This document shows positions 5,864 to 62,049 of a stretch of 64,000 nucleotides of DNA, one piece after another; the first letter of the stretch is position 1; each line of letters opens with the position of its first letter. The notes under the pieces were generated by a model, which saw only the letters and a program-made list of their open reading frames with translations, made no database searches and had not been told where the DNA came from. This DNA is from Psammoneis japonica (lineage: Eukaryota). Both the position numbers and the translations under genes were made by a program. The DNA is taken from contig QPGO01000006.1 of assembly GCA_008632985.1 (NCBI GenBank), positions 62,001 through 126,000 of the forward strand. The letters run 5' to 3'.

Positions 5864-6908
5864 TCAATTCCAGTGGCCAGTCTGCACAGAACGTGCTTCC
5901 GAAAATTCATCCACATAGATTTCTTCTCTTGGTTTGGGATGATGATGCTGACTCAAACAACCGGCAAAGCATTTGGGATTGATTTCAAATCGTGGCTCGC
6001 CAAATTGGCCCTCCCACAATCGTCGGTTGTTGCATCTGCAGATTTGAACCTCGACATCGCGATTGTTGACACACTCCAAACAAAAGTTGGTTCTGACAAT
6101 TTTGACTTGAACGGTGCTGCAAGATTGAGGTAAAGAGAGAAACTCTGTTGAAGCAATCCCGCACTCGTCCACAACAATGAGTGCGCCAACACGACGACAG
6201 GGATCACAGTCCATGCACCAAGGAATTTTGGCATGACAATCTTGCCAACCATGACATTGCTTTCAACAGAGCTTTGGGAAAAAAGAATCGTTGGCACCGA
6301 AGCTTTTGATCAAAGCCAAAGGATCGCAGTCGGAATCGTCACAACAACAATCAAAGCTTGGCGCTCCATGTGCAGCCTCGGCAACCAGGAATTTCATTGC
6401 AGATGCCGCTGCACTGACAACATTTCAAAGAGCCCTTGCACTCCAGGTTTGTGTTGCAATCACCTTGACAACGACAAAGCGGGGCAAGAGGGGGGTTTGC
6501 CACGTGTTGCAACACAACCTTGCAGTCCTGGGCATCACAACAAAAGACAGCCAGAACCAACAATTCCTTGTCCATGCAACCTGGAATGCAAGCAGCACTC
6601 CCTCCATCACGCTGAAAGGAAACAAGATCTCCACAGCAATCGTTGTTGCAGCTGCAAGTGCAAATGTGCATCAAATCATGGGACCATGACAACAGCAGTG
6701 AGTGAGGAAAGCACAAACAAAAGCCACGGCATTGAAAAAAGACAAAGACTTGCTCTCCCTCGCAATGATCCAATGGAGAACTGGGATCATTGCCTGACCA
6801 ACGCAATGGCATGATGGGATTGTCATTTCCAACATCACCCTCGGGATCATGGCAATGACCAGCATTCTCAGAATCGCACCCCACAACAGTGTCAACCCTC
6901 ACGAGCAT
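5864..6908 (-). pseudogene. Decayed secreted protein with frustulin-like Cys-rich (ACR) repeats followed by a ricin-B-like domain
   Basis: Fragments DCCGDLVSFQRDG...IPGC, LCRCQGDCNTNLECKGSLKC...EIPGC, KLC*KQCHGWQ...WCMDCD and CLSQHHHPK...EEIY resemble diatom frustulin-type proteins (from recall). Stops and frameshifts are present. Confidence 0.65.
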
Positions 6909-7437
6909 GGCACTGCAATTGTGGTCGCCATCACGGCTGTTCGAGTCGGGAAAAGAAAAACAAGTGCTCCATCACAAAGGAGTGCAACTCAACAAAACGT
7001 GGGGTGGGGCACCATTGCCACGAGCCAAATCAGAAACAAACAAACAATGAGTTTCGCGTGCGACCTCAATGGAAATTGTGTCAAATCCACAAATGAAATT
7101 AACGCTCATGACCAAGTCGTGAATGACGTCATCCTTGTTTGTTTGACGGTGGAAAGGGGCAGCTGATCATCGCGGTGAACAGGCAGGGAAGCAGTTGTTG
7201 TTGTTGTTCATGTTGGATGTTGGTGTTGAGAGTTGAGATGAGGCCAGCGAATTGTGGGATGGCACTTTTTCTTTTGCACGCCACAAGTGCAAACTCATGC
7301 AGGGTTCTACGTGCGTCATTCTGTGCGCCGGTGGCATGTTGCAAGATCTGAAAAGACACCAAAGATGCAACTTGAACTTGGACATTTTATTTTGTGTGCG
7401 CATCCCAATTTTTCACACATGCACACGTCACAGGACT

Positions 7438-7712
7438 GTCACTGGAAAACGTGGGAACGTCGCTGGAAAACGTGGGAACGTCACTGGAAAACGTGGGAAC
7501 GTCACTGGAAAATGTGAGAACGTCACTGGAAAACGTGTGGACATCATGACATCCATTCGTGTCCAGCTCTCGGTGCAAACATTGCGTGCATTCTACACAT
7601 GTAGAGTGCATTCCAGAAATCATGTGCAAACTTCAACCATGGGACGTCACTGGAAAATGTGGGAACGTCACTGGAAAACGTGTGGACGTGCATCACTGGA
7701 AAACGTGCAGAC
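7438..7712. repeat. 21-bp minisatellite (gtcactggaaaacgtgggaac), five units plus three more units
   Basis: Directly visible at 7438-7542 and about 7646-7712, with no spacers. Confidence 0.9.
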
Positions 7713-7823: not shown

Positions 7824-8062
7824 CCTCCTTGCACCCAAGTTCAGATGGAGATGAGCCGTGCGATGCAAGACCTCTCATCGGAAAATGTCCTGAGACTTGT
7901 GCCTCTTCCAGAAGTGGGTGCTTCTGGCCCAAGATGGCTGGTCACGGAGACCGGTCAAACCTGTCGGCGTTTTGTCACTCTCACTTTTCCATCTTTGTTG
8001 AGACAGGAACCCTGATCAACGTGACTGGATCATTCCAAAGCATTGGAAAAGCGATTTTTTGC
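7824..8062 (+). repeat. Split direct repeat A1
   Basis: cctccttgcacccaag...aagcgattttttgc, near-identical to 16017-16255. Confidence 0.9.
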
Positions 8063-8082
8063 TCCCTCTCCCTCTCCCAACC

Positions 8083-10559
8083 ATGTCCGACTGCTTCTCC
8101 TCTGGCATTGATGATGGTGCCTTCGTCAACGTGGCTCGCACTCTCGAGTCCGATGTCATTTCTCCATTTTCGGCACAGTCTCCCGCGTTGCCTGCTTCTC
8201 GGGCCCCACCCTCTGCGGTGGGTCATCAGGGGGGTGTTGAAGGCGCAAGCCCCTCTCTTGGGGGCTTAAATCTTGAAGGAATGACTGGTGACATGGGACA
8301 TTCAGACATCGAGCGTGCGGAGCTGGGGGAAGTCATTTCCCCTGACCCGGATTCTGCATTCGATGCCTTGCTCTCGAGAACAGAAAGCGCTCCCCGCGTT
8401 GATTTTTTCGCGGCGAAGGATGGGGGAGCGGGTCGAGGTGCATCTGGCTCGATGGAGGAAGGTGCGTCTCCTTCGTCTGATGCACCTCGTTTTCATGTCG
8501 CCTGGATTGAAGGTGCCGATAACTCCCGTTGCCTTGGGGTTGCCGGGGGTGGAGCCATGTTCTGTTTCAAGAAAGCTGAGGATTGCAAGGTGAAACACAA
8601 GGGCTCGAAGAAGGTCATTCCTTCGGACGGCATGGTGTTGATTCTCAAGACACCAGACACGGCTTTTTGCCAGCCTGCTTTGGATGGCTCGTTTGTCTCG
8701 GCAGACGTTCTGGTTAGCTGGGAAGCGAGTGCCAATGCTTTGGCAGGGTGGCGTCAGAAGTTTCTGGCTCTCGGGAACAGCGACACTTGCTGTCCTACGG
8801 AGGAAGAACATTGGGAGTCTTTGAAGGAGTACAAAGTCGCCGCGGCTTGCAAGACGCCGGCAAAGGGCAAGGATCCCCACAGCAAGGAATTTCCTGGGCC
8901 ACTTTTCAGACACTTCACACCCCACCAGCGGGTTGTTTCCACCACCCCAGCGCAATTTCTGGCCGCGAACAAAAGTCCCGCGGCCCTGGCTGGAGTTGTT
9001 CAGTCCCTGGAAAGAAACTTGACAGAGACCGGCAACACGGTGGTGGAGATGGGCAACAAGGCATGCGTGCACTTCAAGGAATTGAACTCCTCAGTCAATG
9101 TCCTTGGCCGCAAGCTGGAGCAGCTGGGTGCAACTCTCGGTTCTCCTCCACCTGAATTCAATCAGCGAGTGGAAGCCCCTGCGATTTGGGGAACACTTGC
9201 CAATCTGTCAACAGTCGGCTCACCCGAGCGCCCTCCCAGAGACTTGTCCGTGGATTTGGCACAGATGGAGTCGAACATTCATGCCGGTTCCAACAGACTG
9301 GCGTCAAATGTGAACACTGCCATCCAGAACTTGCAAAACAAAATTTCTGGGTTGGCAGCCAAGCACGACATGGACTCTCTGAGGACAGGCATGCTCAAAG
9401 TTTGCAACCAGTTGATTGGCAGAGTTCAGAATCTTGAAAATGCGGGAGCCTCGCTTGGAGGCGCGATTAGATCTGGAAGCGGATTGGGGTTTACAGGGGT
9501 CGGAAGCTTGAGCACCATGGACCGACAGACACGGGATCTGAGCCAAGCGGTGAACGAGTTGAAGTCCAAGTCAGACACTTCGGCTGTCAAGTTCTCTGGG
9601 GTCGGTGTCTCGTCTTTTGGAGAATGTCAAGCCTGGATGGTACAACATTTTTCCTCCAGGGTGCATGGCTGCCTCACAGATGCAAATTTGTCATTGGATC
9701 GAATCACGGGCACGGAACCAGTGGCTTCGCACCATTTTTTGGCTGGTCTGGCTAAGCGCATGGACTTAAAGATCAGCACGGAAGAGGATGCAAGGACTCT
9801 GGCGAGTTTTCAGCACAGCATGCCGAGGATTTTGGATTCGGGCTCGGCAAAAGGAGCGCAGTCGGCGGGCCTCCACCCGTCGTTCTTGGACAAGACAGCC
9901 TCCCATGATCACTGGTCCACTGGCTCAACGGGGACCAAGCATTTTATCATGGATAAAATTGGGACGGTCGAGCGAAATGTTTTGAGCAACATTGCTCAGC
10001 GAATCCCGGGGGGGGGGGGCCGTTTGAAGGCCAGGTGGTTCGAGATGCCCTGTCGAAGTCAGTGGCATTTATTCGGGGTTTGATTCAGTTTATGGATGAA
10101 ACTTGCGAGAACCTGGTGCAACTGAGCAAGTTCTCTCAAAAGCAGGCGTGGTCCTTGACTTCGAAATTGGTGCACAGAATCTTTGATGATCTCAATCAGG
10201 TTCGCTCCGGCATCTTCACATCAATCAAGGGAGCCGATCCGGATGTGGTGTGCAGCCAGATTCTTTGGGCAATTTTTCGGTCTCACGACGTCATGGCCGA
10301 GCACACAGCTCACAACTTCAGGGACCACCCCTCCATGGCATCGGAGCATGTGAAATTTCTGGCTACGAACTCCGGCTTTGAAGCTGTCACTGCTTTGCAA
10401 GCTGCAGTGACGACGCTGGCGGAAAAGGCGAAAAACGCTGGAACCGAAGCTAAGTCGGCGCAGGCTAGAGCTGACACGGCGCACCAGGGGGTGAACAAAC
10501 TGAAAACGGAACTCAAAGAGGTCAACAGGCGTCTGAAAGCGACAGAATCCAAGAAATGA
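8083..10559 (+). pseudogene. ORF1 (gag-like) of the YR retrotransposon, frameshifted at a G12 run
   Basis: Track ORFs 8059-10083 and 10035-10559 join across G12 at 10008-10019. There is a Cys/His knuckle (C...FC...C..KH), coiled-coil-like segments and a C-terminal FRDHPSMASEHVKFL block. Confidence 0.7.
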
Positions 10560-10562
10560 AAC

Positions 10563-13500
10563 GTGGAGGGGGTGGACTCACTGGTGCTCAAAAATGTGGG
10601 GCTTGTTGTTCACGGTCGCAAATTGTTTTCGTTCCACGGGTCTTGCTTGATTATTTCCACCGGCCCCCCCATTTGGCTCCTGGCGTCTGGGCCATCTGAG
10701 TGGCCTCGTGTCGCACTGTGTTGTGTGAACGACCCTCCCACCCCGTTGGAGTGTGCCATCATCCACCTCTGTGAGGGTCAAGAGGGCGCATCTCTTCAAC
10801 ACATCCCATTCTCAGGGATTGGCGATTTGGCGGCTGCCAGTGATGTGGCACTGGTGTCTGGGGACCCGGCATGCTTGGAGAGGATTTCACGATTGGAGTG
10901 CAATGTTCTGACGCACTTGGCCCCGGTCGGCAAGATGTCAAGACGTGGCTTGAAAGGGCTTCAGCACTTGTGTCACGTCGGCCTGCCCCATTCAGCGGTT
11001 GGCAGCGTCACGTCCTTTCGGACGACACTTTTCTGTGTCGGGGGCTCTCTCCCAGATTTTAGGGGGGGGCTGTGTTGCACAATTGGCCACATCATTGACT
11101 GTGAACTGGCAGGACAGCCATGCCCCGCAGAACCTTTGGGGGTGCATTGCAGGGAGGGCGATCACGTGAGCCCACAAGTCACACACCGGCCAGTGTCATG
11201 TCAGTCTTGCCGGTCCCATGCAGGGTGGATCCTCAGGGAGTTGAGTGACGATGAACTCCCAGCCGCGTGGGATTTCCCACTTCGATTCCGGACTGGGGAG
11301 ATGATGGATTTGCTCTCCAGGGAGGTGTGGAGTCAGTTGATCCCACTGAATCTACTTGCCGCGGTCGTGGACCACGTCATTGAGCAGCGCTCAACTGCCA
11401 CCCGGCCGGCGGCCCTCGATCCTTCTTTGGGTCCTTCAGAACCTGCCATTGAGCCGGCTACGGCCACTTGGCTGCCTGGGCTTGGTCGGCATTTGCCTCA
11501 CGAATGGATTGACCTGTCCCTTGTCACTGCCAAGGCGGCAAAAGGGGATTCGGTGTTGCCGCCTTTTCGTTCATGGGACAAGTGGGTTGCGCTTTTGTTT
11601 CCTGTGTTTGGGCCCGTCCTTCCAGCTTTGCGTTTGATGGCTCTTTGGTGGTGGCGCCGCCGTTTGACTCGATCGTTCTTGGGGTGTGTGAGTCGATGCC
11701 ACGGGTGGGAATGGGTTCCTCAGCTGCTGGGCTTGCAACAACGGTTTGGGGACTCTTTGTTGAGTCATCAGGGGGGCTTGCATAGAGACCCACCACTCCC
11801 AGTGTCACTGTTGGACGGGAATCTTGGCGCTGACGTTCTAACCCAAACTTTGGCAAGTTCCTGGTGGAGCTGGGACCGGGGCTCTTCTCTTTTCTTCTGG
11901 CGCTGGCCCCCGCCTGAGCAACGCCAGGCAGCACGCGATGGCCTTCCGATTTTCGTGAGAGGCACGCCACCCAGGAACCGCAAGCGGCAGCGGGTTCGCG
12001 GCTCTGGAAACGAAATGCAGCATGTGGCAACCAAAATCCAGAAGGTCCGAGACCATGGACACATTGAGCGTGGTCCAGTTTCGAGCCTTGCAGACCATTT
12101 TTGGGTCCCTGAGGCTGTGTCTTTGGTCCCGAGGTCTGACAGGAGGATGGAGGAAGTGGTCGAGGACATCCGGATGGTGCACAATGGCACCTCATCTGGT
12201 CTAAATGACGCTCTCTGGGCTCCTTCTTTCTTCCTTCCAACTGCAGCATCGGTCTTGGGGCGCATGACCGAATCAACTTTCTCTGTCGATTTGGATCTGG
12301 GGGGCATGTTTCTAAATTTTTTCATGGACCCACGGATTCGACCTTTTGCCGGCATTGATCTCACTCCACTCCGCAACCACCTCCCATGGCCCTTGGCGAC
12401 TGAACTTCCTGTTGGCATGGAGCGTTGGAACCGTCTGTTTGTGGGAATGAAGCCCAGCCCTTGCAACGTGGTGCGGACGCATTGTTGGGCTGACGAAGTG
12501 GCCCGAGGGGATCCCAGCCGTCCGGGGAACCCTGTGGGCTTCGACAAAGTTCTTTTTAACCTCCCAGGGGATCCCAATTACAAGGTTCAAGACCCACTCG
12601 TGATCAAATGGAACTCCATCCTGCAGATCATCGCTGGAGACATCAAAACCTTCGTAGATGACTTGCGAGGCATGGGAGCCAGTGAAGAAGAGGCGTGGCA
12701 AGTGGCACATCAGATGGCTGCCAGGCTTCAGCATCTCGGACTCCAGAACGCCCCGCGCAAAGTTCAGCCCCCATCCCAGCAGGAGACAGGTGCCTGGGCT
12801 GGTGCCATTTTCCGGGTGCTTGCCCGCAATGTCACCCAATCTCTTTCACAGGCCAAGTGGGACAAGGGCAAGGGCATGATTGAGTCCCTTCTAAGTCATT
12901 ACGATGGAATGGGTGAACTCGGCCTCCCCGAGTGCAACTTTAAGGACCTCGAGCGAAAGCACGGGTTTCTTGTCCATGCCGCCATGACTTGCCCCTTTTT
13001 GACGCCCTTCCTCAAAGGGATTCACCTGACACTGGACAGTTGGTGCCCAAACCGAAAGGTGGACGGATGGGCCATGTCGGACAAGGAGTGCGCAGCATGG
13101 ATCCATCACGAGGCCGACAAGCTTGGTGTTGATCCGTGCGAGCTCGGTGAGAACCTTCAGGACGGCAAGCACCCTGAGACCGTGTGTGCAGCACCTCGGT
13201 CATTCTCCGACTTGCGGGCTTTGCGACGGATCATGGAACCGGATGAGCCCACTGCTGGAATCATCCGCTCCTCCAAGGCAGTGGTGGTTCTGTGCGGATT
13301 CGCTGATGCGTCTGGGAAGGGCCTCGGTTCTTCCGTCCAGACTAAGGATGGGGCAATCGTGTTTCGGATTGGGATCTGGGGCGACGATGATCAATCCAAT
13401 TCATCAAATTGGAAGGAACTTTCGAATGCAATCGATGCAGTCCAGGAGCTGGCTGAGTCGGGGGAAATGGATGGCGCCACTCTCTGTTTTTTCACTGACA

Positions 13501-14363
13501 ACTCAGTCTCAGAGATTGCAGTCTACAAAGGAACCTCGTCGAATCCGATGCTCCTGGAGCAGGTGACACATTTGCGGGTGCTCGAGGCCAAGCACGGGTT
13601 TGTTCTCCACTTGGTTCATGTCTCGGGCAAACGCATGACAGCCCAAGGCACAGATGGGGTTTCTCGAGGCGTCCTCACGGAAGGGGCATTGAACGGGGCC
13701 AAGATGCTCTTGTTTGTTCCTTTGCACTTGGCAGCGACTGAGCGGGCTCCTCTGCTGTTCGATTGGATCCGTTCCTGGGCAGGATTGCCGATGGCCGAAA
13801 TCCTTTCTCCCATCGATTGGTTCCAGAAGGGCCGCGACATGTCTGAGTGGCACTGCCCGCCCTGCGAAGAAGTTGAGATGCCGGTGTTCTGGTCAGGCAC
13901 TTGGGTCTGGGCCCCACCGCCCACCGTGGCTAGAACAGCTCTCGAAGAACTCCGCATCGCCCGCCTCAAGCGCCAGAGATCGTTCCACATTTTTGTTTGT
14001 CCGTGCCCAATGACTCCGGAGTGGCAGAAACAATTGCACAAGGCGGCGGACCTCATCTTTCCGGTGCCGACGGGAGCTGGGGCGTTCTGGCCTGAAGAAA
14101 TGTTTGAACCTTTGCTCATCAGTCTTGTTTTCCCCTTCATCTCTCACAGTCCGTGGCAGCTCCGAGGGACGCCAAAGATGTGCTCTGTGGACTGGGCGTT
14201 GCGAAAAGTGTGGGAGGAGGCTGAAGTGGACGCGAGGGACATTTTGCACAAATTTTGTGCACAGTGTTGGAGATTGGCCTCTGTGTCACAGAGCGTGGTG
14301 TCCAGGGTGTTGTGCTTTGAGCGCAAGCATCACCTTCCACTTGGGCAGGATCCTCCCGGATGA
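10563..14363 (+). CDS. ORF2: reverse transcriptase / RNase H polyprotein of the YR retrotransposon (heavily missense-mutated)
   Basis: RT motifs DLDLGGMFLNF, GMKPSP and FVDD. RNase H motifs FADASGKGLG, SSNWKEL, FTDNSV, HVSGKRM and DGVSRG. Only 3 Tyr in 1266 aa. Confidence 0.85.
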   Translation: MEGVDSLVLKNVGLVVHGRKLFSFHGSCLIISTGPPIWLLASGPSEWPRVALCCVNDPPTPLECAIIHLCEGQEGASLQHIPFSGIGDLAAASDVALVSGDPACLERISRLECNVLTHLAPVGKMSRRGLKGLQHLCHVGLPHSAVGSVTSFRTTLFCVGGSLPDFRGGLCCTIGHIIDCELAGQPCPAEPLGVHCREGDHVSPQVTHRPVSCQSCRSHAGWILRELSDDELPAAWDFPLRFRTGEMMDLLSREVWSQLIPLNLLAAVVDHVIEQRSTATRPAALDPSLGPSEPAIEPATATWLPGLGRHLPHEWIDLSLVTAKAAKGDSVLPPFRSWDKWVALLFPVFGPVLPALRLMALWWWRRRLTRSFLGCVSRCHGWEWVPQLLGLQQRFGDSLLSHQGGLHRDPPLPVSLLDGNLGADVLTQTLASSWWSWDRGSSLFFWRWPPPEQRQAARDGLPIFVRGTPPRNRKRQRVRGSGNEMQHVATKIQKVRDHGHIERGPVSSLADHFWVPEAVSLVPRSDRRMEEVVEDIRMVHNGTSSGLNDALWAPSFFLPTAASVLGRMTESTFSVDLDLGGMFLNFFMDPRIRPFAGIDLTPLRNHLPWPLATELPVGMERWNRLFVGMKPSPCNVVRTHCWADEVARGDPSRPGNPVGFDKVLFNLPGDPNYKVQDPLVIKWNSILQIIAGDIKTFVDDLRGMGASEEEAWQVAHQMAARLQHLGLQNAPRKVQPPSQQETGAWAGAIFRVLARNVTQSLSQAKWDKGKGMIESLLSHYDGMGELGLPECNFKDLERKHGFLVHAAMTCPFLTPFLKGIHLTLDSWCPNRKVDGWAMSDKECAAWIHHEADKLGVDPCELGENLQDGKHPETVCAAPRSFSDLRALRRIMEPDEPTAGIIRSSKAVVVLCGFADASGKGLGSSVQTKDGAIVFRIGIWGDDDQSNSSNWKELSNAIDAVQELAESGEMDGATLCFFTDNSVSEIAVYKGTSSNPMLLEQVTHLRVLEAKHGFVLHLVHVSGKRMTAQGTDGVSRGVLTEGALNGAKMLLFVPLHLAATERAPLLFDWIRSWAGLPMAEILSPIDWFQKGRDMSEWHCPPCEEVEMPVFWSGTWVWAPPPTVARTALEELRIARLKRQRSFHIFVCPCPMTPEWQKQLHKAADLIFPVPTGAGAFWPEEMFEPLLISLVFPFISHSPWQLRGTPKMCSVDWALRKVWEEAEVDARDILHKFCAQCWRLASVSQSVVSRVLCFERKHHLPLGQDPPG

Positions 14364-15235
14364 CCAACAAAACGACGACGGGGCCCAGTCAGGTGAGGAT
14401 GCGGCGTGAATTGAAGACAACATTTGGTTTCGAAAGCCCCAGGACAGGAACAAGTTCACCCAAGCTCGTGCTGGGGACCATCTGATGGTGGCTTTCGAGT
14501 GCAACTCTTGCATTTTTCACAAGTTGCATTGCAGAGACCCTATCCCGACCTCTCCACATGATGAGGTGGCACTGGCTTGCATCAGGCGGATCAATTTGGA
14601 TGCATTCTGGAGTGGAGAAAGTTCTGCGGTGGAGAACAACGCGTCCAAGGTGGCTCGGGGATTGGCCCCATTGGATCGTCCAGGTCTTCATGGCCCTCAT
14701 CTGGAACCAGGCCCCTTGCCTCCGCACGATCACTGCGGATGTGAGGTGGCAATGCAAACAGTCTTGGCATTGACATCCCCCGGTCGCTGTTCAGGCTCGC
14801 ACTCCCAGCTTGACACCGTCAGGAAGCTTCGAACAGCTTGCTCAAACCAGGTCAGGGCATCAGCCTCCGCCAACTCCCGGGCCCTTGCATTGGCGGATCT
14901 TGAAGGCAAGCAATGCCTTCGGACATGCGAGGACCCGTGTGCTTCCTTGTGGTTTCAAAGGTTCATGACTGGATGCAAGAGACGAGTGGGCCAGGATTGG
15001 AGGCCGGACAGGGCAATTTCTGTTCAAATCATGCAACATCTGCTGCCAAGGCTTGAAGACAAGTTTCTTTGAGCCACAAACGCCGGGGATCGGTTCAGGT
15101 TTCTAACCAGGGGCTTCTGTTTTGCAGCGAGCTTTGCCTTGTCCCTTCGTGGGCCAGAGGGATTGCTTGTCGATTTGGGGGCGTTGCGGGAACACCTCCC
15201 TCTCCACAACTCACATGTCATGATCCCACCCGGCT
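14280..15235 (+). pseudogene. ORF3: tyrosine recombinase, disrupted and C-terminally truncated
   Basis: ARAGDHLMVAFEC..C, IRRINLDAFWS, then after TGA at 15070 ALSLRGPEGLLVDL (candidate catalytic Arg). No HxxR/Tyr region was recognisable downstream. Confidence 0.65.
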
Positions 15236-15571
15236 CTGTTCGGTGCCGACATCACTTCTCACGGCGACATCGAAGAGAAGCACGATGTGAGCAGATCGTT
15301 CCGTCTTGGGTCTGACTCGCGAGCTGTTTCCCGGAATGTGTCGGGAAGATGACATCGACGCAGTGAATCAATGGAAAAAGAAGGAGCGAGCTGGGGCCGC
15401 TCGGCCCTCACACAAGATGAGGCAACACTGTGCCGACATCTCTCTCCTCCTTCCCTCTTTCCTGAGACACACACAGGAAATGTGAGACAAGCTTCACGGC
15501 CTGCCTCTTCTTCGTTGGATCTCAAGATTCCTTTTTTCAGGTGGCCACTACCTGGGAGTTCTCATCGGGGG

Positions 15572-16721
15572 GGATTTTGCGCTCAACTTTGCTGTTGGAC
15601 CACGGGAGTCCACCTGTAAAGTCTGGATCAGGTTCCTCGACAATCTGCTTTAGACGACGCATCAGCTGCAAAGTCACAGGAACAGCGTCGGGCGTTGTCT
15701 TTGATTCCAAGTCTGAGAGTCATCTAGCATGGGGTTCCGATGTTGCGAAATGCCGGAGGCACCTCCCACTGGTCTTGATTGGAAGCGCCATGAGCAGATC
15801 CTAGAGTTTCCTGATTGCGAGCCCTCAAGTTTTGCTCGAGACCCTGTGGAGGGCATGGGTTTTACCCAACCCCCCCTTGTGCGGAGTAGAGTGTCACCGA
15901 AAGCTCCACTCTGTGAGACTCCCAAGCATTCTAACACCAAGTTTCTTCTCAGTGGTTCTTGGGCTGGCAGTCCAGGACTTTTGTCGGATGTGGATCGGCA
16001 CCTCACATCATCGAATCCTCCTCGCACCCAAGCCCAGATGGAGACGAACCGTGCAATGCAAGACCTCTCATCAGAAAATGTCCCAAGACTCATGCCTCTT
16101 CCAGAAGCGGGTGCTTCTGGCCCAAGATGGCTGGTCACGGAGACCGGTCAAACCTGTCGGCGTTTCATTGCTCTCACTTTTCCATCTTTGTTGAGACAGG
16201 AACCCTGGTCAACGTGACTGGATCATTCCAAAGCATTGGAAAAGCGATTTTTTGCACCCACCCACCACTCCCTGGATTTTGCGCTCAACTTTGCTGTCAG
16301 ACCACGGGAGTCCACCTGCAAAGTCTGGATCAGGTTCCTCGACGATCTGCTTCACAGACGACGCATCAGCTGCGAAGTCATGGGAACAGCATCGGGCATT
16401 GTCTTTGATTCCAAGTCTGAGAGTCATCTAGCATGGGGTTCCGACGTTGCGAAATGCCGGAGGCACCTCCCACTGGTCTCGATTGGAAGCGCCATGAGCA
16501 GATCCCAGGGTTTCCTGATCGCGAGCCCTCGAGTTTTACTCGAGACCCTGCGGAGGGCATGGGTTTTACCCAACCCCCCTTGTACGGAGTAGAGTGTTGC
16601 CGAAAGCTCTACTCTATGAGACTCCTAAGTATTCTAACACCAAGTTTCTTCTTAGTGGTTCTTGGGCTGGCAGTCTAGGACTTTTATCGGATGCGGATCG
16701 GCATCTCACATCATCGAATCC
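15572..16721 (+). repeat. Split direct repeats B1 (15572-16018), A2 (16017-16255), B2 (16274-16721)
   Basis: ggattttgcgctcaactttgctg...cacatcatcgaatcc occurs twice, flanking the A copy. Confidence 0.9.
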
Positions 16722-16949
16722 AACTGTCCACGAGGATTTACCGTGTTATTTTTTCTGGGCCGTCATCGCCAGCACTGCTTCTAGCCCTACGTTGACACGA
16801 CTCTGAACTCACTCGAAGCACATCGCTCTTCACGCATCAATTCTCGCACACCGAAACTGAAAACAGTCAACTTTCGCAGTTATGTCTGCTGCCGACATGA
16901 TTTGCGCAGCGACACCGTCTAAAAAGGATTGCACAGAAGCAGCAAATCA

Positions 16950-19334: not shown

Positions 19335-22300
19335 GATGCCAATGATGATGGTGGCTTTTTTCCAATTGCTAATCGCTGTGCGCCCCCAGCAACAAACCCC
19401 CAACAAAGCTGCTGCAAACATCAAAAAGATCCACACAGAGTCTGTGGGAGTTGGCACACTGATCCAGCCCACACAAGGAAATGAAGTGGCGGTGCAAGGA
19501 AGTGAATGTCAGCACAGCTCCACATGCTGGTGCACACTCCAGGAGCCCCAAAGGCAGGTGTGGTGCTGGGCTTGCAAATTTTGCATTTGTGCTGGCTCTG
19601 CAGAAAAGCCGTTGGGCCGCAAATGGGTCGACGACTGCCAGCAGAAAAAGAGGCAGTGCCCGAAGTGCGCCAGCTCCTCTGCTGTGCTCAGGCACTTTCT
19701 TGCTCTCTCCAGACACTGAAGAAAATGTCTGGCGCCAATCTTTGTTCTCAGGAACAGCTGAGAGTGAGGTTTTCACTCATTTGCAAAAGGGAGGATGATG
19801 GTGATTTTTGAAAAGGATTGCTCACAAAAATGAGCGTGTGGCTTTTGTGCGGCGCATGACCAAAAAACCCTTTGTTGCAGCCCAGCAGCAGCCCACGAAG
19901 GTGTGCAAACACTTGTCAGCTGCAGAGCTGTTGTTTGCACTGAGAGTCAATGGCAAGCACCACCCTTTTCAGGCAAAGTGCACAAGGCCAGAGAGGAGTT
20001 TCTGCATGGAGCACAGCAGGGCTGGGGGTTCTTGACCAAGCATGTTTTTCACCAGCATGAGCAGCTGGAAAACAGGCTGCACAAGATTTTCACCCAGGTG
20101 GCATGGGGCAGACTGTTCAAGAAGACAGCAGCAGAGCTCTGCAGGAGTGTCAATGGTGCCCGACTCTCTGCAGCCACAAGGCTGCCAAGTGTGCAGCAGA
20201 TGAAATGAGAAACATGCCCCTCCTCTTTCTCTTTGATGGAAAATGTTTCCACTGTCATTGCCACTGCAAAAGAGAGTGCAGCCAACAAAATGAATGGGCA
20301 CCAATCAAGTTGTGCTTGCACTGCAGGCCGCACAATGCCAGTCATTTGCAGCCTGACAACCACCCTGGAAAAGCGTTCCACAGATGGAGACAACATGCTG
20401 AGCTCCCCTTGGTTGTTGGCAATCAACATGATCTGAGAGCAGCCAGCTTTGTTGGTGTCCAAGGGATGAAGTCATCAAATTGGGTCAAAAGCACTTTTAA
20501 AAAAGGTGAGGTCAGTGCCAAACTTGTGCTTGTGGGCAGCAAACTGCAGCAGCTGCTCTTCAAAGGTGGCTCTTGTCTCTGTGCACAACATGCAACTGGG
20601 CTGGACTTTGGGCAGCCTGAGGCTCTGTTTGCAAGCAAGGTGCTTGTTTGGAGAACTCAGTCTTTGTCTTGTGTGGCCAGGCTGAGTTGCTTGACAACAT
20701 GAGTGCAACTCTCTGCACACCTCCAACGGAGGAAATGACAAGCTTGTTTTCTCACTGCATCTTTGAAAGCACATTCAAAGAGTTCCCGGCTGCTTTTGTT
20801 CATGCCACACATTGCGCAAAAGAGAGGACAGAGTCTTTTGGTGTGCTGTTGGAGGATGTTGTTTTTGCTCTTTTGAGAGACATGAGCCTCAACATGTCAG
20901 CAAACACAAGGAGCTTGCAAGCAGCCACCCAGGCAATTGAGGCGCAAGCTGACAAACTCTGTGGTCTTCAACAAAAGCAACAAAGACTTCAAACTCAACA
21001 TTTGCCTCACTTTCAAAGCAGTCCAGAGCACATTTTGTCTTGTTTCATCATTGATGCATGGTGCTTGTTTGGGAGCATGGCTGGCAGCAACACCCACTTG
21101 TGCCCCAGCTCCAAAGTGGCACCAAATTCAGAGACACAACAAGGGCAGCATTGTTCTGCAGACAGAGTGGCACATTCTCAAGTGTGCTCAAAGCACAACA
21201 TGAGGCCAACCAGCAAACTCATGAGGTGTCAGCCACATCTGCAGGGAGGGACATTTCTGTGATGTGCAAGCTGTGGATGTTTTTGCAGGCCTTGAAATGT
21301 TTCTTTCTCCCACAGATGGCAACAAATGGCAGCATCTGGCATTCAACTTTCCTCGAGGCCACGTTTGTTCAAATCATGTTGTTCTGTTGAAAGACACACT
21401 GCTTCAAATGTCAACTTTGTGTTTTGAAATCTGCCAAAGTGAAGTGCCATGGGGCAGTGTTGGCCCAACAAATCCTGCAAAATCGCTCATGATGGCTGTG
21501 GAGGGGACACTGCTTGCTGCTTCAACAGATGCCAAATGTGGACAAAGTTGTCATGAAAGCTGGTCCTCTGTGCGGGGCTCTGTTGTTGCCAGCTTGTGTC
21601 AAAATTTGTGGGGATGACCCCCCCCCCCCCTCCAGCAGCAAGCAACAGCAACAGTGGCGCACATGGCAGTTTTTGCTTGTCAGCAAAGACACATCAGCTG
21701 ACCTGGCGCCAGACTTGCCCACATTCAAGGGAGGTCATTTGCTGCTTTTTGAAGCTCAAATTTGACCAAACAGCTTGTGGTTTGAATGATTTTTCCTGAA
21801 TTTCACTGTGCTTCACCATGGCAAAAACATCAAGCCACAAGTCTGTGATGGAGGCAGTCCATCTGTCAACTCTCATTTGTTTTGTGTTTGTTGTGTGTCA
21901 AAGGTCACGCGTGCATCAAATTTTTGAGAACAGACTGCTGTGTTTTGGAGCCACATCAATTTTGCCATCATTGCCGTGCTTTGATCACGGCACCTGATGT
22001 TCTTGTTTTTGTGCATGGTCACGGGCGAGTGCAGACAAGCTCTGCTTTTAAAAACAAACACCACAAATGTCCTCATTCAAATGCCAATTTTCTCACATGA
22101 CTTCACAAAACAGCCAAACAGGTTGAGCTTGGTGGCAGCTTGAAAAGTGCGGCAAAGCCCAGCTTTAAAGAAGTTGAGAGAGGGGCGGTCACTGGCAACC
22201 TGAAAAAATGAAGAAATTCAGCACATTGACAGTGTGACACATGCACACAAGATGCGCAGAAATGTGCCAAATCTTGGAATCTTTTGTTGCTGTCTGTCAC

Positions 22301-22990: not shown

Positions 22991-23234
22991 ATGCCGCATC
23001 GATCTGATAGATCGGAAGAGTGGAATTATGGTTTCCCCTCACATTTTCGCAAAAAATTGTGCGTCGCGTTGCTCTGCGAGAGCTGCGAACTCCGTGTACA
23101 GCACCGTGATTTTCAGACCGATCCAAGACGCTGCACTTCTTTTCTTGGAACTATTTTATTGAAACAGGAAGTCGTCGACAAGATAGTATTGAGTTTCCTA
23201 CCAATGGTTCACGTCGGTTGTTGGTCAATTTAGT

Positions 23235-24152
23235 ATGTTTGTCAAGAAACGCCACAGGGTTTCCCAAGACCGGTGGGTTTTACTATCATCACTGATGATT
23301 GCCTTTCTACTCGGATGCTATGTGCGGGGATTGACTGCCTATATACGCGAACTTTCGTTCGAACTTGCACGCTCACAAAGCGCCCCCGACGTAAACGTCA
23401 ATACACCTGAAGCATCGACGACGAAGGCGCTCGGGGATGGGTGTTTTCATATCTTTCTGGATGTCGGAGCGAACATGGGAGTACACGGGCGATTCTTGAT
23501 GGAGCCTCAAAAATATCCCTTGGCGACCACTAGCCGTGATATTTTCGAAAAGGAGTTTGGTGTAGAGAGCAAAAGAGATAATCGGGACTTTTGTATCTTT
23601 GCTTTCGAGCCTAATCCAAGGCACGAAAGCAAATTACAAGAAAATGCCCGGGCATACCAGGCCATGGGTTGGCGATATCATGTCATCCATGCGGGTGTCG
23701 GGACAGAAACGGGTGTTCTTCCCTTTTACTCAAAAAAAGAATCCAATCAAAATGACTTTCGTGCCCAACCGATGAAAGGCGCAGCGACCATTACTAATGT
23801 GACTGTCCTTCACTTTTCATCATGGCTCAACGAAAATATTTACGGACGCGACGTTCCAACAGAGACCTATGGAACCTACCCAACCAGCCACAAGAAACCC
23901 AAGATTGTGATGAAGATGGACATAGAGGGTTTTGAATTTGAAGTTCTCCCCGATATGTTGGCCAGCGGTGCTCTGTGCCAAATTGATTTTGCCTTCATAG
24001 AACTTCACGGATCGAGACCTGAGCATTCAAAAATAAAGCAGGCTTTGGACACAGTCTACGCCAATGCGAGGGTGTGCAAGAAATTCAGATACCGAAATGT
24101 GGATGATGAAACTTATGCGCTTGACGGCATTCCTCTTCCGAAGAAGGACTAA
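23235..24152 (+). CDS. FkbM-like SAM-dependent methyltransferase with N-terminal membrane anchor
   Basis: IFLDVGANMG, FAFEPNP, KMDIEGFEFEVL and IELH motifs, plus an N-terminal TM segment. Confidence 0.85.
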   Translation: MFVKKRHRVSQDRWVLLSSLMIAFLLGCYVRGLTAYIRELSFELARSQSAPDVNVNTPEASTTKALGDGCFHIFLDVGANMGVHGRFLMEPQKYPLATTSRDIFEKEFGVESKRDNRDFCIFAFEPNPRHESKLQENARAYQAMGWRYHVIHAGVGTETGVLPFYSKKESNQNDFRAQPMKGAATITNVTVLHFSSWLNENIYGRDVPTETYGTYPTSHKKPKIVMKMDIEGFEFEVLPDMLASGALCQIDFAFIELHGSRPEHSKIKQALDTVYANARVCKKFRYRNVDDETYALDGIPLPKKD

Positions 24153-25839: not shown

Positions 25840-28800
25840 AGTTTTCTGTCATTGTTGTGACATGCTGGTGGTCATGCTTTGACATTGCGCCCCATTGTCA
25901 GCTCGAATTGATTCTGTGCTCAAACAGATTCAAAGTGCAGCTCACCCTCCTCCTCTTCACCCAGAGAAGGCTTGGGCGGAAGTCAGGGGTGAATGGATTG
26001 TGCCTGCACCTGACTTTGCACCACATCATGAACGCCACAGGCCTTGACAAGATGCAACTCATGGCGCTCCAAAAACAGCTCATTGGCAGAAACTTGGCAG
26101 GGCCCCTTGAACGACTTGTGTTGCCGCATCAAGTGAGGCATTGCCGCCAATCTGCAGTCATCCTGAGTGGCATTTGAGCAGAGTTTGAGCAATCGACAGT
26201 CACTGGGATCACAGTGTGCATGGGTGGGTGGCCACAAGTGAGAAACCTGGAAAGCTTGAGCGCAGCTCTTCCAGCTTTGCAGCCACCCGCCACTGCCGCT
26301 GCTGTCGCCAATGTCCTCCTGCTGTTGTTGCTGTTCCAGCACCAAGACAGATGTGCAAAGTCACACCAAGTCAACTGCCAGTGCTTCTTTGGGGGAAGCA
26401 TGATGAGAAATCCCTTCTTCTTGTGCTTGGGATGCTGCCAGGTGTGTCGTTCATCAATGCAGCAAGAAGACATGTGACTGGCACTGGAACAAGTCAACCA
26501 CCTGTCAAGTGTTGGTGGAGGGCACACATGTGGATGCTTGAAAAGGCAGCAGTTGTGAGTCCCAACCCTTGAACAACTCCAAACTGGCGTGGCAGGCATG
26601 CCCCAAATGAGCATGTGCAGACCATCGCCATGGTGATGCCACAAGGAAAAAGAAAAAATGACCACCAACAATGGTGAAATTGATGTGGTGGATGAGGTGT
26701 CCAAACCATTGTTGCTTTGTGAACAGCTGCAGCCACTGCTTTGTCAAACTCTGTGGGTCACATGGCTGCAATTGTCCATTCGGAGACAAGCACCTCGGCA
26801 AGAATTTTGGAAAGATGCGTGCCGTTTGGGTTGTTTGTGATGCCACATCACCCGCCAATTCTTTGTGCACCTGTTGCCAGCCAGATTTCCAGCACCCACT
26901 GAGTTGAAGCCAGTGGCAATGCCAAAAAAGTCAGCAAACAAAATCAAAATGTGGTGACGCGAGACATTGCTGGCGAAGGATGTCGGGCTGGTGTGTCAAC
27001 AGAGGGCGAGATTGTGCAAGATCAGCTCTGGCCCATCACCACACAAGCAAGGGACACTGCACCAGGGTTCTCATGCACAGAGTGACTGCTTGGTGCTGAA
27101 GATTTTTTTGCGACTTCACAGAAGTGACTTCAGTGGTTCCACCCTGGCATTTTAGATTTGGGGGGAGTCAGATTGAAGAGATGAGTGAAGAGAAGGGAGT
27201 TTGTTGACAAATTCTTGGTGCGCAGTTCAAAGAAAAAGCAGTCAGCCACAAAGACAAAAATGCATTGATGCTGCCATCTCACAAAAGGAACACTCATGTG
27301 AGTGGAAGTTCTCCCCTGCATGTGTCCACTCTGGACTCTAGATTGATCTTGCAGAGATGTGAGAGCATGAAATTGTGGGTTTTGCTTCAAATCTTCATGG
27401 ATTGCATGGCACATTCTTGGCACTGAAGAGGCAAAATGTGGCTGCAATGAGGTCAGTGATGAATTGTGAAATGGTGCATGGTCATGAAATGGGTTTTGCA
27501 TTGATGCCATCATCCAGACCATCTCAGTGTTGAGAGAAAGGGTCAATTTTCCCCCTCATTGTGCCCCAAGACATGAGTCTTGGATCCAGTGTGACCCACT
27601 CATTTTCAAATTTTTTCAAAGTTTTGGCTGGGCTTTGACCCCCCATTGGAGACAGAAGTTCCCAAGATGCAAACATTGTTGGTCTCGTGCACTTGAAAGC
27701 AGTGCATTTTTCCTGACATTGTGCGTTTGAAGATGGGAGCAGCTTTTTGCTGAGCACCTTTGTTGTGCAGAGAGGGACAAATTTCAGCACAACTCTGCAT
27801 CCAACACAACTCTCTGCTTTCATTGTCACATCTTCCAAAAGGTGCAAGATCAGGCCACAAATGTTGCAGTGCTGACACCTGCAGAGATGGGGAGCCTTTG
27901 TTTGTGAAAGCTGCCAACATGAGTTGTTTCATTTTGTCAGCATGCCCAGAGCATCAGCCATCAAACTGATGGACTTGCGAGTGACTGTTTCTGATGTGGG
28001 GCATCAAGCCACTCCAAATTTTTTCATTGGCTGACTTGCCCACCTTTTTTCCTTTGGGGAAACAAAATCCAAGAATGCAGTTGATGCGCTGTGTGGTGAT
28101 TGCATGCAAATGATCCACTGCCAGACATTGCTGCTGCACATGTGCATCATTCATTGCATTGCATCATGGCAAATGCGTGCATGAAGTGTGATGTTTGGTT
28201 TTGTGTTGACAAATTTGTGGTCATTGTTTGGCACAGCTTTCTGCTGCAATTTCCCTGGGTGCCACTGAGTCACCACCCACCATCAAAATCAGAAGTTGCG
28301 CTTGAAAAATTGAAAAAGAATGCAGAGGGGATTTCTCATGAATGGCCCAGATGACAAGAGCCAGTTTGGGCAGAGCTGTGCACTTTTTTGGTGCAAATGC
28401 AAGTGCAGCAATTTCAAAAAATGCTCGTCATTCACTTTTCCTTTGAAGCCACACAACCAGTTCTGACAAAACTCAGCAAGGAAAAGACAAAATGGCAAGC
28501 CTGCTGCCAGCGGTTCATGCATTGTTGGCCAGCAGCTGGTGAGAGAGAGAGTCATCTCATGAGCTGTGCAATGAACACACTCATCTTCTCTGTGAAAAAA
28601 AAAACAACCAAGTTTGCAGCACACAGTTGTGCCTCTCAATGCCCCAGGTTTTCAAAAATCTGCCTGCCCTGCTGGTGCTGCATCAGTGTGCATTGTTTTT
28701 GTTTCCAACACACTCCAGCTCTGGGTGAGACCTCGTGCCACACTGCACTGTGACATGAAAGTTTTTCCATCACGTTGCTGAGCACAGAGAGGAGAAGAGA

Positions 28801-38547: not shown

Positions 38548-38664
38548 CACTGATCATCTTTTGAATTCCACAGCATTTGTGGTTGATCACGTGTTCTACA
38601 TTGTACGGCAGCCGAGCGATGCTGGGCTTCCGATCATGCGACTGCTCGCACTCTGTTCTCTAGA

Positions 38665-39570
38665 CATGGATGCAACCATTGATGTTTCTTTTGGTTGTGG
38701 CATGCCGCGTGCTCTTGACAACAATGAAATTTGATGGATTTCTTGTCGCACATCCAATGGGTCTTCATCGTCGTGCAAATCACAATGCTCCGCCACGTGA
38801 TCAATGGAAAAAGACATGTCTTCTTCTTCTTCCGATGATGATGATTCTTCTTCTTGCAGGCGTTGTTGCTGTCTCGCAAGAGCCGCCATGCGACACAATG
38901 ACAATTGTCGACAGAGTGACTGTTGCATGCCACCAATGGACGACATGGAGGTGGATGTGACTTCACTTGCAGCCGTGCTGGGAGTCATGTCACTTGTCAA
39001 GCTGCATGCATCCACTCAAAGGATTCATCATCAATTGGGCGCTCACTGGAAACAACCGATGCTGCCATTGTCGCAACTGCAGCCATCTTTGCAACACTGG
39101 GGACTGTCATCCATGGCGCAGCCATTGTCATCATCTTGCTTGGATGTTTTTGTCTCGTCTTTTTGTTTCTCATTGCTCGTTTTGCTGGTCCGCGTCTGGT
39201 CTTGGGTCGTTTCTGCACTTTCCACCAAACTGCCAATGGGAGCTGACACCAACACAAGTGCCACGGCTGCCACGCAGACACCGCAACTCCTGCATTGTTG
39301 CTGCTGCATTTCTTGGAAGACTTCAATGACTTGTGCATTTGAGGCTTCTTGCAAACTTGTCGTATCGCCCAAGGCTTGTTGTTGCACCACACGCACAAAT
39401 TCTGTTTCGACGGGACTGCCTTGAAACAAAACTTGGCCCATGCACTTCAAAGTCGTTGCAGTTGTCAACAAGACTCGATTTGATTTTTGCAAGCCCAAAT
39501 CAATGCGGATGGTCTGCAGTGAACTTTGAACAAAGTGTTCCATCAAGCATTGTGAAAGGGAATCAAAACG
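38665..39570 (-). pseudogene. Partial, hypermutated copy of the membrane-protein gene at 59940-61718
   Basis: Shared peptides GQVLFQGSPVETEFVRVVQ, GVCVAAVALVLV, TSMSSIGGMQQS, RMAALARQQQR and SSSEEEEDMSFS.DHVAEH. Frameshifted. Confidence 0.92.
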
Positions 39571-39654
39571 GCCCTCATTGATTCCGGCATTCTCATCACT
39601 CTCGTGACACACTCCGACGAAAAATTGGAGCGACTTCGCCCACAACATCTTCCG

Positions 39655-48149: not shown

Positions 48150-48890
48150 GGCACCAACCAACCCAACAACTGCAGCCAGAGCACATTGGGGGTCTTTGGT
48201 GGACCCCAGGCAGGCTTTGAGAACTGTGGTTGATGCTTTCAAGGCCACTCTGGCACAGTTGTTGCCCCAGTCACTTTACACCACAATGAGGGTGAGACTT
48301 GAAATCCCAACTCCACAGTGAAAGAATGCCATGAGTGCACCAGCCAACCCAACAACTGCAGCCAGAGGGCACTGGGTGCCTTTGGTGGACCCCATGCAAT
48401 GCTTTGAGAACTGCGGTTGAGAGTTGCAAGGCCACCCTGGCTCAGCTGTGGCCCATGTTGCTTCAGCCCACACCACACCAAGGGCGAGACTTGAAATCCC
48501 AAGTCCACAGTGAAAGGACACCATGAGTGCACCAAACAATCCAACAACTGCAGTCAGAGGGCATTGAGGGTCTTTGGTGGACCCAAGGGGACACTTTGAG
48601 AGCTGTGATTTTGAGAGTTGCAAGGCCAGCACCCTGGCTCAGCTGTGGCCCCGGCCGTGTCACTTCACACTGGGCCCATGCCAAGGGTGAGACTTGAAAC
48701 CCCAACTCTGCAGTGGAAGGATGCCATGAATGCACCAACCAAGAACCCAACAACTGCAGCCAGAGGGCATGGGGGTCTTTGGCAGTTCCCAGGGAACACT
48801 TTGAGAACTCTGTGGTTGAGTTTTGCAAGGCTGTTCTGGTGCAGTTGTTGCCCCCATGTCACTTCACACCACTCCAAGGGTGAGACTGGA
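48150..48890. repeat. Satellite family 1, about 190-bp unit, four copies
   Basis: gcacca...ccaacaactgcagccagag...gtctttggtggaccc...ctttgagaactg...gagacttgaaatcccaa recurs near 48151, 48337, 48529 and 48732. Confidence 0.85.
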
Positions 48891-48929
48891 TGAGCACCTC
48901 AATTGTGTCACAAAAAAGTCATCAGCTGA

Positions 48930-50135: not shown

Positions 50136-50219
50136 TCTGGGATCTGGTGCAGATGCCTCCTCCTCTTCCTCACTCAAGAACACTGTTTGCATCCAAAGGA
50201 CCAACATCTTGAAGGGTTG

Positions 50220-61718: not shown

Positions 61719-62049
61719 GGCGGCAACAACAATATACCTCTAGAGAGTATGATGCATGCAACAAACAGTAACCTTAGCAACAACACAGTTTCCTCTCCGA
61801 TCTACCGTTGGTTTGCAGCACAGCAAGCGCACCCCGCGAAAAATGACACGCGTGGGAATCGTACGAATTCAACGCATGCTTTTTATATACACGAAGACGA
61901 ACATATTTCCGTTGAGAATCGTTTTTTGAATGACGTAACAAGATGCCATATCTTTCATTCTATTTCTACAGACACGAATGCGTCATTGGTTGGAAGAACC
62001 AAAAAGATGCCACGTCGCAATGCTCATTTTTCCCTCACAAAATTCAACG

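Follow-up and report, generated by a model that had tools for sequence, protein, structure and literature searches.

In Neurospora and other ascomycetes, repeat-induced point mutation (RIP) converts CpA to TpA, which enriches TA and makes stops from CAA, CAG and TGG. Methylated transposons, for their part, lose CpG by deamination of 5-methylcytosine. Methylation of transposable elements has been described in diatoms, according to the available text of that report (PMC9998398). The available text of a 2026 preprint describes a TpA-only mutation of A:T to G:C in Bigelowiella natans, which was measured in mutation-accumulation lines, strikes an integrated giant virus and virophage at ∼1,000 times the background, and for which an ADAT2-like deaminase is proposed as an untested candidate (bioRxiv 10.64898/2026.01.13.699255, Mettrop et al.). 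Here we describe a comparable signature in a 64,000-nucleotide stretch of DNA from Psammoneis japonica (contig QPGO01000006.1, positions 62,001 to 126,000; hereafter the window, within which all coordinates are given). The region 7824-16721 holds a single inserted retroelement of the tyrosine-recombinase type, which has split direct repeats. Very probably, this element was inserted into a diatom-like nuclear genome and, on both strands of its region, TpA was then mutated in place to TpG or CpA. Such a region-confined process, acting after insertion, would have removed about nine-tenths of the TA of the element, with a slower decay of CpG to TpG or CpA alongside.

The window resembles B. natans in that the changes affect TpA alone, yield TpG or CpA, occur on both strands and strike foreign DNA regionally, with the rest of the genome spared; confinement to these changes, their presence on both strands and a regional restriction that spares genes were each found here. 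In addition, the TpA-poor, CpA- and TpG-rich clusters of B. natans are enriched for reverse transcriptase (RT) and transposase domains, and the element in the window is a retroelement. The hosts differ, since B. natans is a rhizarian whereas the host here is diatom-like, and the word diatom does not occur in the available text of the preprint. The depth of depletion differs as well: in B. natans the virophage region shows no depletion and the main target still has an observed/expected (obs/exp) TA ratio of 0.45, whereas here whole blocks lie at 0.00 to 0.2. The targets in the window are a retrotransposon, repeat-like DNA and a dead gene copy, and CpG decay occurs alongside, unlike in B. natans. 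The loss of Tyr, the stop-neutrality and the flank preference reported below are absent from the Results and Discussion of the preprint, in the text available. A literature search for a TpA-loss signature in diatoms found no description. Among the literature searched, the process is a variant of a kind described in print only for B. natans, in that one preprint.

With RIP, the process shares dinucleotide specificity, restriction to transitions, dense mutation of mobile or repeated DNA on both strands and a strong dinucleotide skew. However, its polarity is the opposite, from TpA to CpA or TpG, leaving the element with a TA obs/exp of 0.10 and with CA and TG enriched. Moreover, unlike in RIP, the creation of stops from sense codons is impossible, as an enumeration of codons established, and the longest open reading frame (ORF) of the element stays open over 1,267 codons. 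Changes of CG to TG or CA, of the type expected from methylated transposons, are also present (15 events between the repeat copies of the element). Nevertheless, the loss of TpA is separate from this decay, which is slower: the CG content of the element is near the level of its relatives, whereas its TA is nearly gone.

A comparison of repeats within the window gave the layout A1 - genes - B1-A2-B2, with the internal repeats 3' of the recombinase gene and all features on the forward strand. Terminal repeat A1 (7824-8066) and internal repeat A2 (16017-16259) are 93% identical, and internal repeat B1 (15572-16018) and terminal repeat B2 (16274-16721) are ∼93% identical. The four ORFs between A1 and B1 are three genes, all on one strand, coding for a gag-like protein, an RT/RNase H polyprotein and a tyrosine recombinase. 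ORF1 (8083-10083; 666 amino acids [aa] from the first Met, 693 from stop to stop) is the N-terminal part of the gag-like gene, and ORF2 (9957-10559; 200 aa from stop to stop), in another frame, is its C-terminal part. ORF3 (10560-14363), fully open over its 1,267 codons, is the polyprotein, with an RT/RNase H core at approximately 12000-13560, assigned from the fold match of the core of its relatives. ORF4 (14410-15069; 220 aa from stop to stop) belongs to a remnant of the tyrosine-recombinase gene (14014-15485). These coordinates and contents agree with an earlier reading of the sequence (here, the original prediction), save for slight differences in length.

That reading had pointed to a scarcity of Tyr in the four ORFs, of about 4 residues against 12 in a 305-aa host methyltransferase. 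A recount gave 4 in 2,353 aa (0.17%; 1, 0, 3 and 0 in ORF1 to ORF4, respectively) against 12 in 305 aa, counted from the first Met, for the host protein, an FkbM-type methyltransferase that served as the control (23193-24149, forward strand; Pfam PF05050, E of 1.7e-10; TA obs/exp of 0.56). Homologues of the element proteins are not poor in Tyr. The values ranged from 1.35% to 3.44% (median, 2.13%) in 120 homologues of ORF3 and from 1.44% to 3.90% in 120 homologues of the recombinase, and no Tyr-poor homologue was found among the 240 (minima of 1.35% and 1.44%). Against the ∼27 Tyr residues expected in ORF3 from the median of its homologues, only 3 were seen (Poisson probability of 3 or fewer, ∼7e-9).

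The alignment of these 240 proteins showed which residues had taken the place of Tyr. Majority columns were defined by a residue share of at least 60% in at least 20 relatives. In the 20 Tyr-majority columns this copy has Cys in 11, His in 8 and Tyr in 1, of which ORF3 contributes 11 columns (5 Cys, 5 His and 1 Tyr), whereas other residue classes were retained at 50 to 94%. All of the 19 substituted columns carry TGY or CAY codons, which bears out the proposal that Tyr had been removed through a change of TA to TG or CA. An alignment with 78 homologues of at least 1,000 aa gave the same picture, the five columns with at least 70% Tyr being occupied by Cys (three) or His (two). When the DNA of 80 related loci, obtained with tblastn, was used instead, 14 Tyr columns corresponded to 5 His, 5 Cys, 3 Phe and 1 Tyr. 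The four strings in which Cys or His had been supposed to stand for Tyr are all in ORF3 and do face Tyr in relatives: RMVHNG against RMVYNG, LQHLG against LQYLG, SPCNVVRTHCW against SPYNAVRYFYW, and VLCGFADAS against V.YGFGDAS.

The replaced sites include some that are nearly invariant, with Tyr in 110 of 111, 118 of 120 and 103 of 104 relatives. In the recombinase remnant, codons TGT (15429) and CAC (15468), which span 15429-15470 on the forward strand, lie opposite the two invariant C-terminal Tyr residues of the family, each of these columns being Tyr in 103 of 104 relatives. In terms of the relative P0121, these are Y450 and Y463, invariant in 45 of 45 sequences and replaced here by Cys and His, respectively. 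One Tyr-majority column of ORF3 retains its residue, Tyr674 (TAC, 12579-12581), in a context other than YTAR (where Y is a pyrimidine and R a purine); this would be a site not yet struck, or one recreated.

At the DNA level, the element has TA, CA and TG obs/exp ratios of 0.10, 1.43 and 1.24, respectively. The 80 related loci, which came from an alignment-based metagenome scan (an earlier scan with the single protein P0001 had yielded 28 stretches, none of them confirmed), have TA ratios of 0.43 to 0.81 (median, 0.60), none being below 0.3. Low TA is thus not a trait of the retroelement family, since none of these loci falls below 0.43. ORF3 contains 4.5 TA per kb, compared with 36.4 (standard deviation, 7) in its 15 longest relatives, and the deficit is offset by gains of 16.9 CA and 13.2 TG per kb. 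The estimated loss is ∼32 TA per kb, or ∼121 sites in the 3.8 kb of ORF3. The Tyr deficit is caused by this loss of TpA in the DNA.

TA lies not only within both Tyr codons but also within ATA, TTA, CTA and GTA and at all T-A codon junctions. At the protein level, the process would then turn Tyr into Cys or His, Ile into Met or Thr, Val into Ala, Leu into Pro or Ser, and residues with A-initial codons into residues with G-initial ones. The substitutions in the majority columns were in agreement with this scheme. The original prediction had proposed Ile to Met or Thr as a check, and five such changes were found, with ATG in 3 of 3 changes to Met and ACA in 2 of 2 changes to Thr. ATA is absent from the 83 Ile codons of the element but makes up 28 of 133 (21.1%) in host genes. 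Changes of Val to Ala are GCA in 5 of 7 cases and those of Leu to Pro are CCA in 3 of 4, and altogether 14 of the 18 Ile, Val and Leu substitutions carry the exact predicted NTG or NCA codon. For first-position changes of A to G, such as Ile to Val or Lys to Glu, a T precedes 11 of 19, whereas it precedes just 2 of the 77 A-initial residues that were retained. CpG decay left a weaker trace: of 64 Arg columns, 42 still have Arg, and the residues found instead in the others include His (4), Cys (3) and Trp (2), and the element has 55 CG per kb compared with 52 in its relatives.

The direction and the dinucleotide specificity of the change were also observed outside the element, in a pair of sequences that record the state before and after it. 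A part of the host ORF at 59943-61739 (minus strand) has a dead copy in a TA-depleted block, with 73% identity over 994 aligned bases. When the gene fragment at 60140-61230, in a normal block, was compared with this dead copy (38600-39650), its 39 TA were found as CA in 17 cases, as TG in 12 and as TA in none, whereas other dinucleotides were kept at 40 to 71%. Both strands are affected in this pair as well as in the element, where the Tyr columns gave 11 Cys (TG) and 8 His (CA).

Not every TA was lost to the same degree. Among the TA surviving in depleted blocks, 64 of 121 are in a YTAR context, compared with 114 of 722 in the gene islands (chi-square, 83; p of 7e-20), while ATAN, GTAN and NTAT are nearly extinct. 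This suggests that TA followed by a pyrimidine was lost first, that is, a preference for 5'-TAY on the adenine strand. In contexts where TAY occurs on one strand only, the outcome fits this preference in 11 of 12 cases between gene and dead copy and in 4 of 5 between B1 and B2, and a trinucleotide bookkeeping of depleted against normal blocks supports the change of TAC to TGC (+11.5 per kb). In the anticodon loop, UAC is the target of TadA, the tRNA adenosine deaminase of bacteria, and a conserved U precedes tRNA position 34. A TadA/ADAT-like polynucleotide deaminase that turns adenine into inosine in 5'-TA, with a preference for 5'-TAY, would account for the pattern, although we put the chances of this chemistry at slightly under even.

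The chemistry might instead start from the other base of the dinucleotide. If the thymine of TpA were modified, for example to 5-hydroxymethyluracil by an enzyme of the TET/JBP type, and then mispaired or repaired to cytosine, T-to-C would be the primary change. Since TA is palindromic, the 11 Cys to 8 His and the 17 CA to 12 TG fit T-to-C equally, and the flank preference simply reads as R-T-A. In dinoflagellate DNA, moreover, 5-hydroxymethyluracil favours TpA. Nothing in the window, however, speaks for modification of thymine, and the sole paper on the signature proposes, in its available text, deamination of adenine with an ADAT2-like candidate (bioRxiv 10.64898/2026.01.13.699255). We regard the thymine route as rather unlikely and adenine deamination as the likelier of the two.

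The change is not spread evenly over the window. A profile of TA obs/exp in 1-kb steps revealed a mosaic in which blocks at 0.00 to 0.2 alternate with blocks at 0.45 to 0.86. Normal blocks contain all five host ORFs with Pfam support, and no Pfam family was returned for any of the 34 ORFs submitted from depleted blocks (45 of the 71 ORFs of at least 150 aa in the window were submitted). Intra-window repeats account for 9,711 of the 64,000 bases, and the majority of depleted blocks are single copy within the window. The sparing of the neighbouring gene islands was evident, so that the process is regional and not a general bias. On the other hand, the expectation that it was specific to the transposon did not hold, since it covers most of the window DNA outside the gene islands, including the dead copy of a host gene.

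This wide coverage is what would be expected if a genome-wide bias removed TA from all DNA, with survival only under protein selection and no targeting of repeats. Yet the host ORFs retain TA that could have been lost synonymously, namely, TTA plus CTA at 17.1% of Leu codons, GTA at 14.0% of Val codons and T-A at 17.1% of codon junctions, compared with 3.4%, 1.2% and 3.9%, respectively, in the element. Furthermore, the ORF-free stretches between host genes within the islands have TA obs/exp ratios of 0.41 to 1.00, and the outer 185 bases of B2 retain TA where the matching B1 copy lost most of it. A genome-wide bias is thus very unlikely, and regional mutation remains the preferred explanation.

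The repeat copies of the element, for their part, date the change. Between A1 and A2 there are 13 difference events, including 5 of CG against TG or CA and 4 doubles of TG against CA. B1 and B2 differ by 33 events, with 11 of TA against CA or TG, 10 of CG against TG or CA and 3 doubles of TG against CA. Such a double is the trace expected when a palindromic dinucleotide is struck independently on one strand in one copy and on the other strand in the other copy. While most TA were struck, other substitutions between the copies number only ∼6 in 685 aligned positions, a rough ratio. The TA changes therefore arose in the DNA, in place, after insertion.

They also end at a defined place. The outer end of B2 (16537-16721, forward strand) was spared: 12 TA remain in 16537-16685 compared with 3 in the matching B1 stretch, and B2 has the TA state in 9 of the 11 differences of this type. 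This spared end of ∼185 bases adjoins a host gene that starts near 16923. The mutated tract thus ends inside B2 and not at the edge of the element, which would be more in keeping with targeting by a chromatin-like domain than with recognition of whole repeats. We consider it an open bet, at even chances, that targeting was by silent or methylated chromatin rather than by sequence homology.

Since the element replicates via RNA, as its RT fold indicates, A-to-I editing of its transcript in a UA context before reverse transcription, with the changes inherited at insertion, would also deplete UA, and other genomic copies are indeed TA poor too. This explanation is highly improbable in view of the strand balance and the timing. 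The ratio of 11 Cys to 8 His favours neither strand, the copies A1/A2 and B1/B2 of one insertion differ at TA and in TG versus CA, DNA other than retroelements (including the dead host-gene copy) carries the same change, and the mutated tract ends within B2.

We also considered whether the letters themselves could be at fault, that is, whether a modified base in repeats had been misread in sequencing or assembly so that TA appeared as TG or CA. One public run (X1) contains 85% of the words sampled from the stretch, and its independently built contigs agree letter for letter with the window in pieces of 290 to 5,126 bases. Where other copies of the element differ, the difference is a transition at 354 of 410 places, and the variant letters occur at about the depth of one copy (52 to 67, compared with a unique depth of ∼60) and not at every former TA. 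A strand-dependent misreading, moreover, would not yield the same letters every time at a given site, and the available text of the preprint reports the same signature from Illumina reads in another alga (bioRxiv 10.64898/2026.01.13.699255). Although the library type of run X1 is unrecorded and the run may be the source sample, an artefact is hardly to be expected. Finally, ORF3 is open over 1,267 codons as a functional gene would be, but the idea that low TA and low Tyr are the adapted composition of a still-functional family scarcely deserves credit when 0 of 80 related loci have a TA ratio below 0.43, near-invariant Tyr residues have been replaced and two of the three genes are broken.

Several results weigh against mutation of TpA in place as the full account of this locus. 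Run X1 gives weak independent support, as it may be the source sample of the window and its library type is unrecorded. In the flank test on Tyr codons (6 His to 5 Cys after a purine, 2 His to 6 Cys after a pyrimidine), the direction was the same as in the other flank comparisons but the difference was not significant (Fisher p of 0.35), and the trinucleotide bookkeeping did not clearly support a change of TAT to TGT (+3.8 per kb). A-to-G and T-to-C changes are indistinguishable here because TA is its own reverse complement. At most of the corresponding sites, TA is also missing from copies elsewhere in the genome, as represented by contigs of run X1; the 34 events listed for the 410 differing places include 15 of CpG type, 5 doubles of TG against CA and 2 of TA type. 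Part of the TA loss could therefore predate insertion. Lastly, missense changes need not be the cause of death of the element, because a frameshift, two stops and a deletion are also present.

These lesions bear on a further part of the original prediction, which had envisaged four ORFs damaged by missense, their frames staying open because a change of TA to TG or CA cannot make a stop from a sense codon. The last point was confirmed by enumeration of all codon pairs, which returned an empty set; in the same enumeration CpG decay gave a stop only from CGA (TGA), and RIP-type changes gave stops from CAA, CAG and TGG. As to the frames, ORF3 has stayed open over its 1,267 codons despite the loss of ∼121 TA, whereas the gag-like and recombinase genes have not. 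There are three genes instead of four, and two of them carry ordinary lesions: a frameshift in the gag-like gene and, in the recombinase gene, TGA stops at 14407-14409 and 15070-15072, a deletion of ∼63 codons and two frame changes.

The stops that remain reflect the process. In six-frame counts, 89 to 95% of the stops in depleted blocks are TGA (248 of 280 and 245 of 258), compared with about half in the gene islands (262 of 523 and 201 of 407), and the stops that bound ORF1 to ORF4 are all TGA except for a TAA upstream of ORF2. The density of stops is ∼2.3 to 2.7% in depleted blocks and 3.3 to 3.7% in gene islands, an inflation of ORFs that is modest, the fall in TAA and TAG being partly made up by TGA. 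The length of ORF3 as an effect of composition was rejected, the chance of 1,267 open codons at 2.3% stops being ∼1e-13; its length therefore reflects a young gene damaged almost solely by stop-neutral changes. Since no stop is created and TAA and TAG are destroyed, a gene saturated with damaging missense changes would still read as a long ORF. The missense load alone would likely inactivate the RT and the recombinase, and ORF3, the largest gene, looks intact although probably dead.

The window offers a clean protein-level readout of TpA mutation at saturation on a stramenopile retrotransposon. Genes of dead transposons, and even random frames, stay open in such DNA, where TAA and TAG disappear without new stops arising, and gene finders would call "intact" ORFs with ruined positions of conserved Tyr, Ile and Val or Leu. 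A simple diagnostic is a Tyr-poor, Cys/His-rich ORF with TGA stops only. The preference for TA followed by a pyrimidine constitutes a lead toward the enzyme, and a natural A:T-to-G:C activity on double-stranded genomic DNA would be relevant to research on genome defence and base editing. Whether the process is a defence against mobile DNA or a by-product is, in our estimate, evenly balanced. More speculatively, and with the odds against it, diatoms may possess a chromatin-guided DNA mutator, TadA/ADAT-like and acting on 5'-TAY, a reverse RIP that saturates newly silenced mobile DNA with A:T-to-G:C changes at TpA, disables its proteins by way of Tyr, Ile, Leu and Val codons without making any stop, and is old and shared across the stramenopile-alveolate-rhizarian (SAR) group, such an old origin being suggested by the same signature in a rhizarian alga. 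If true, this mutator would be a natural DNA adenine editor.

The affiliation of the element was examined gene by gene. The A1 … B1-A2-B2 arrangement is characteristic of Ngaro and, among DIRS elements, of the PAT group, according to the available text of PMC4157794. The element shares with both the split direct repeats, a gag-like gene, RT/RNase H and a tyrosine recombinase on one strand; an RT with RNase H, a tyrosine recombinase and repeats in this arrangement, as in the DIRS order, were all found. It differs from Ngaro and PAT in that none of its proteins is recognised by Pfam at gathering score. Thus, no family was returned for ORF1, ORF3 or ORF4 at that score, and the relatives gave only RVT_1, below the cutoff. 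Sequence-profile searches of the PDB gave no match for the relatives of ORF3 and a single one for the recombinase family (E of 0.08), an unrelated 13-kDa protein. Fold models were used for the recombinase and the RT because sequence profiles from Pfam and the PDB gave nothing useful.

For ORF3, 280 homologues were found at an E of at most 1e-3, with 40 to 49% identity, and ORF3 aligns across the RT core of its relatives at this same level. An AlphaFold model of that core, made from 37 relatives, had a predicted local distance difference test score (pLDDT) of 88.3, and its best Foldseek matches were the RTs of Moloney murine leukaemia virus (MMLV), cauliflower mosaic virus (CaMV), human immunodeficiency virus type 1 (HIV-1) and Ty3 (E of 5e-13, probability of 1.00). 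The recombinase relatives are 410 to 470 aa long. The model of this family (pLDDT, 78.6) matched XerH, Cre, lambda Int, XerD and Tn1549 Int best, with a probability of 1.00 and E values from 4e-4. The original prediction had counted a catalytic-Tyr recombinase among the proteins, and the fold modelled for this family upholds the assignment. No DDE integrase turned up in the element, although no search was aimed at one. The named homologues come solely from the diatoms Fragilaria crotonensis and Cylindrotheca fusiformis, the others being environmental.

ORF1 has 22 to 25% identity to the ORF upstream of the RT in loci L018, L001 and L004. In L001 and L018 the parts corresponding to ORF1 and ORF2 share one continuous frame, which reveals the frameshift in the gag-like gene of this copy. 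A contig of run X1 that covers 9729-10211 with nine letter differences, and so represents another copy or allele, lacks 5 letters at 10008; by frame arithmetic, this loss would rejoin the frames of ORF1 and ORF2. A gag-like copy with an unbroken frame may therefore be present in the genome. The element is multicopy by contig depth in run X1 (∼100 to 1,000, compared with ∼60 for the host gene).

Both ends of ORF3, an N-terminal part of ∼480 aa (10560-12000) and a C-terminal part of ∼250 aa (13560-14363), are conserved in relatives, with many invariant Trp, Gly and Pro residues, and belong to no Pfam family. A methyltransferase-like domain is present in DIRS and PAT elements and absent from Ngaro, as given in the available text of PMC4157794, and the C-terminal part of ORF3 could be such a domain.

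CpG loss could be separated from TpA loss. Some depleted blocks have CG obs/exp ratios of 0.02 to 0.2, compared with 0.6 to 0.8 in the element, while four metagenome relatives (loci L066, L025, L030 and L041) have CG ratios of 0.29 to 0.40 with normal TA (0.61 to 0.74), the values for L066 being 0.29 and 0.74, respectively. Tandem and interspersed repeats fill 48151-52500, with a spacing of ∼190 to 370 bases and 66 to 87% identity between copies; there, TA and CG are nearly absent (CG obs/exp, 0.02 to 0.13) and CA and TG stand at 1.8 to 2.0. The ORFs of depleted blocks, for example those at 460-1397, 6152-6971, 20061-21259 and 26132-26743, measure 150 to 485 aa, occur on both strands and contain 0 to 2 Tyr and 3 to 14% Cys, without a Pfam family; these Tyr-poor ORFs are probably spurious or relic frames, which gene prediction could mistake for genes. 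Just 5' of the element, at 7433-7687, lie six copies of a tandem repeat with a period of 21 bases (GGAACGTCACTGGAAAACGTG-like units), which are TA poor too.

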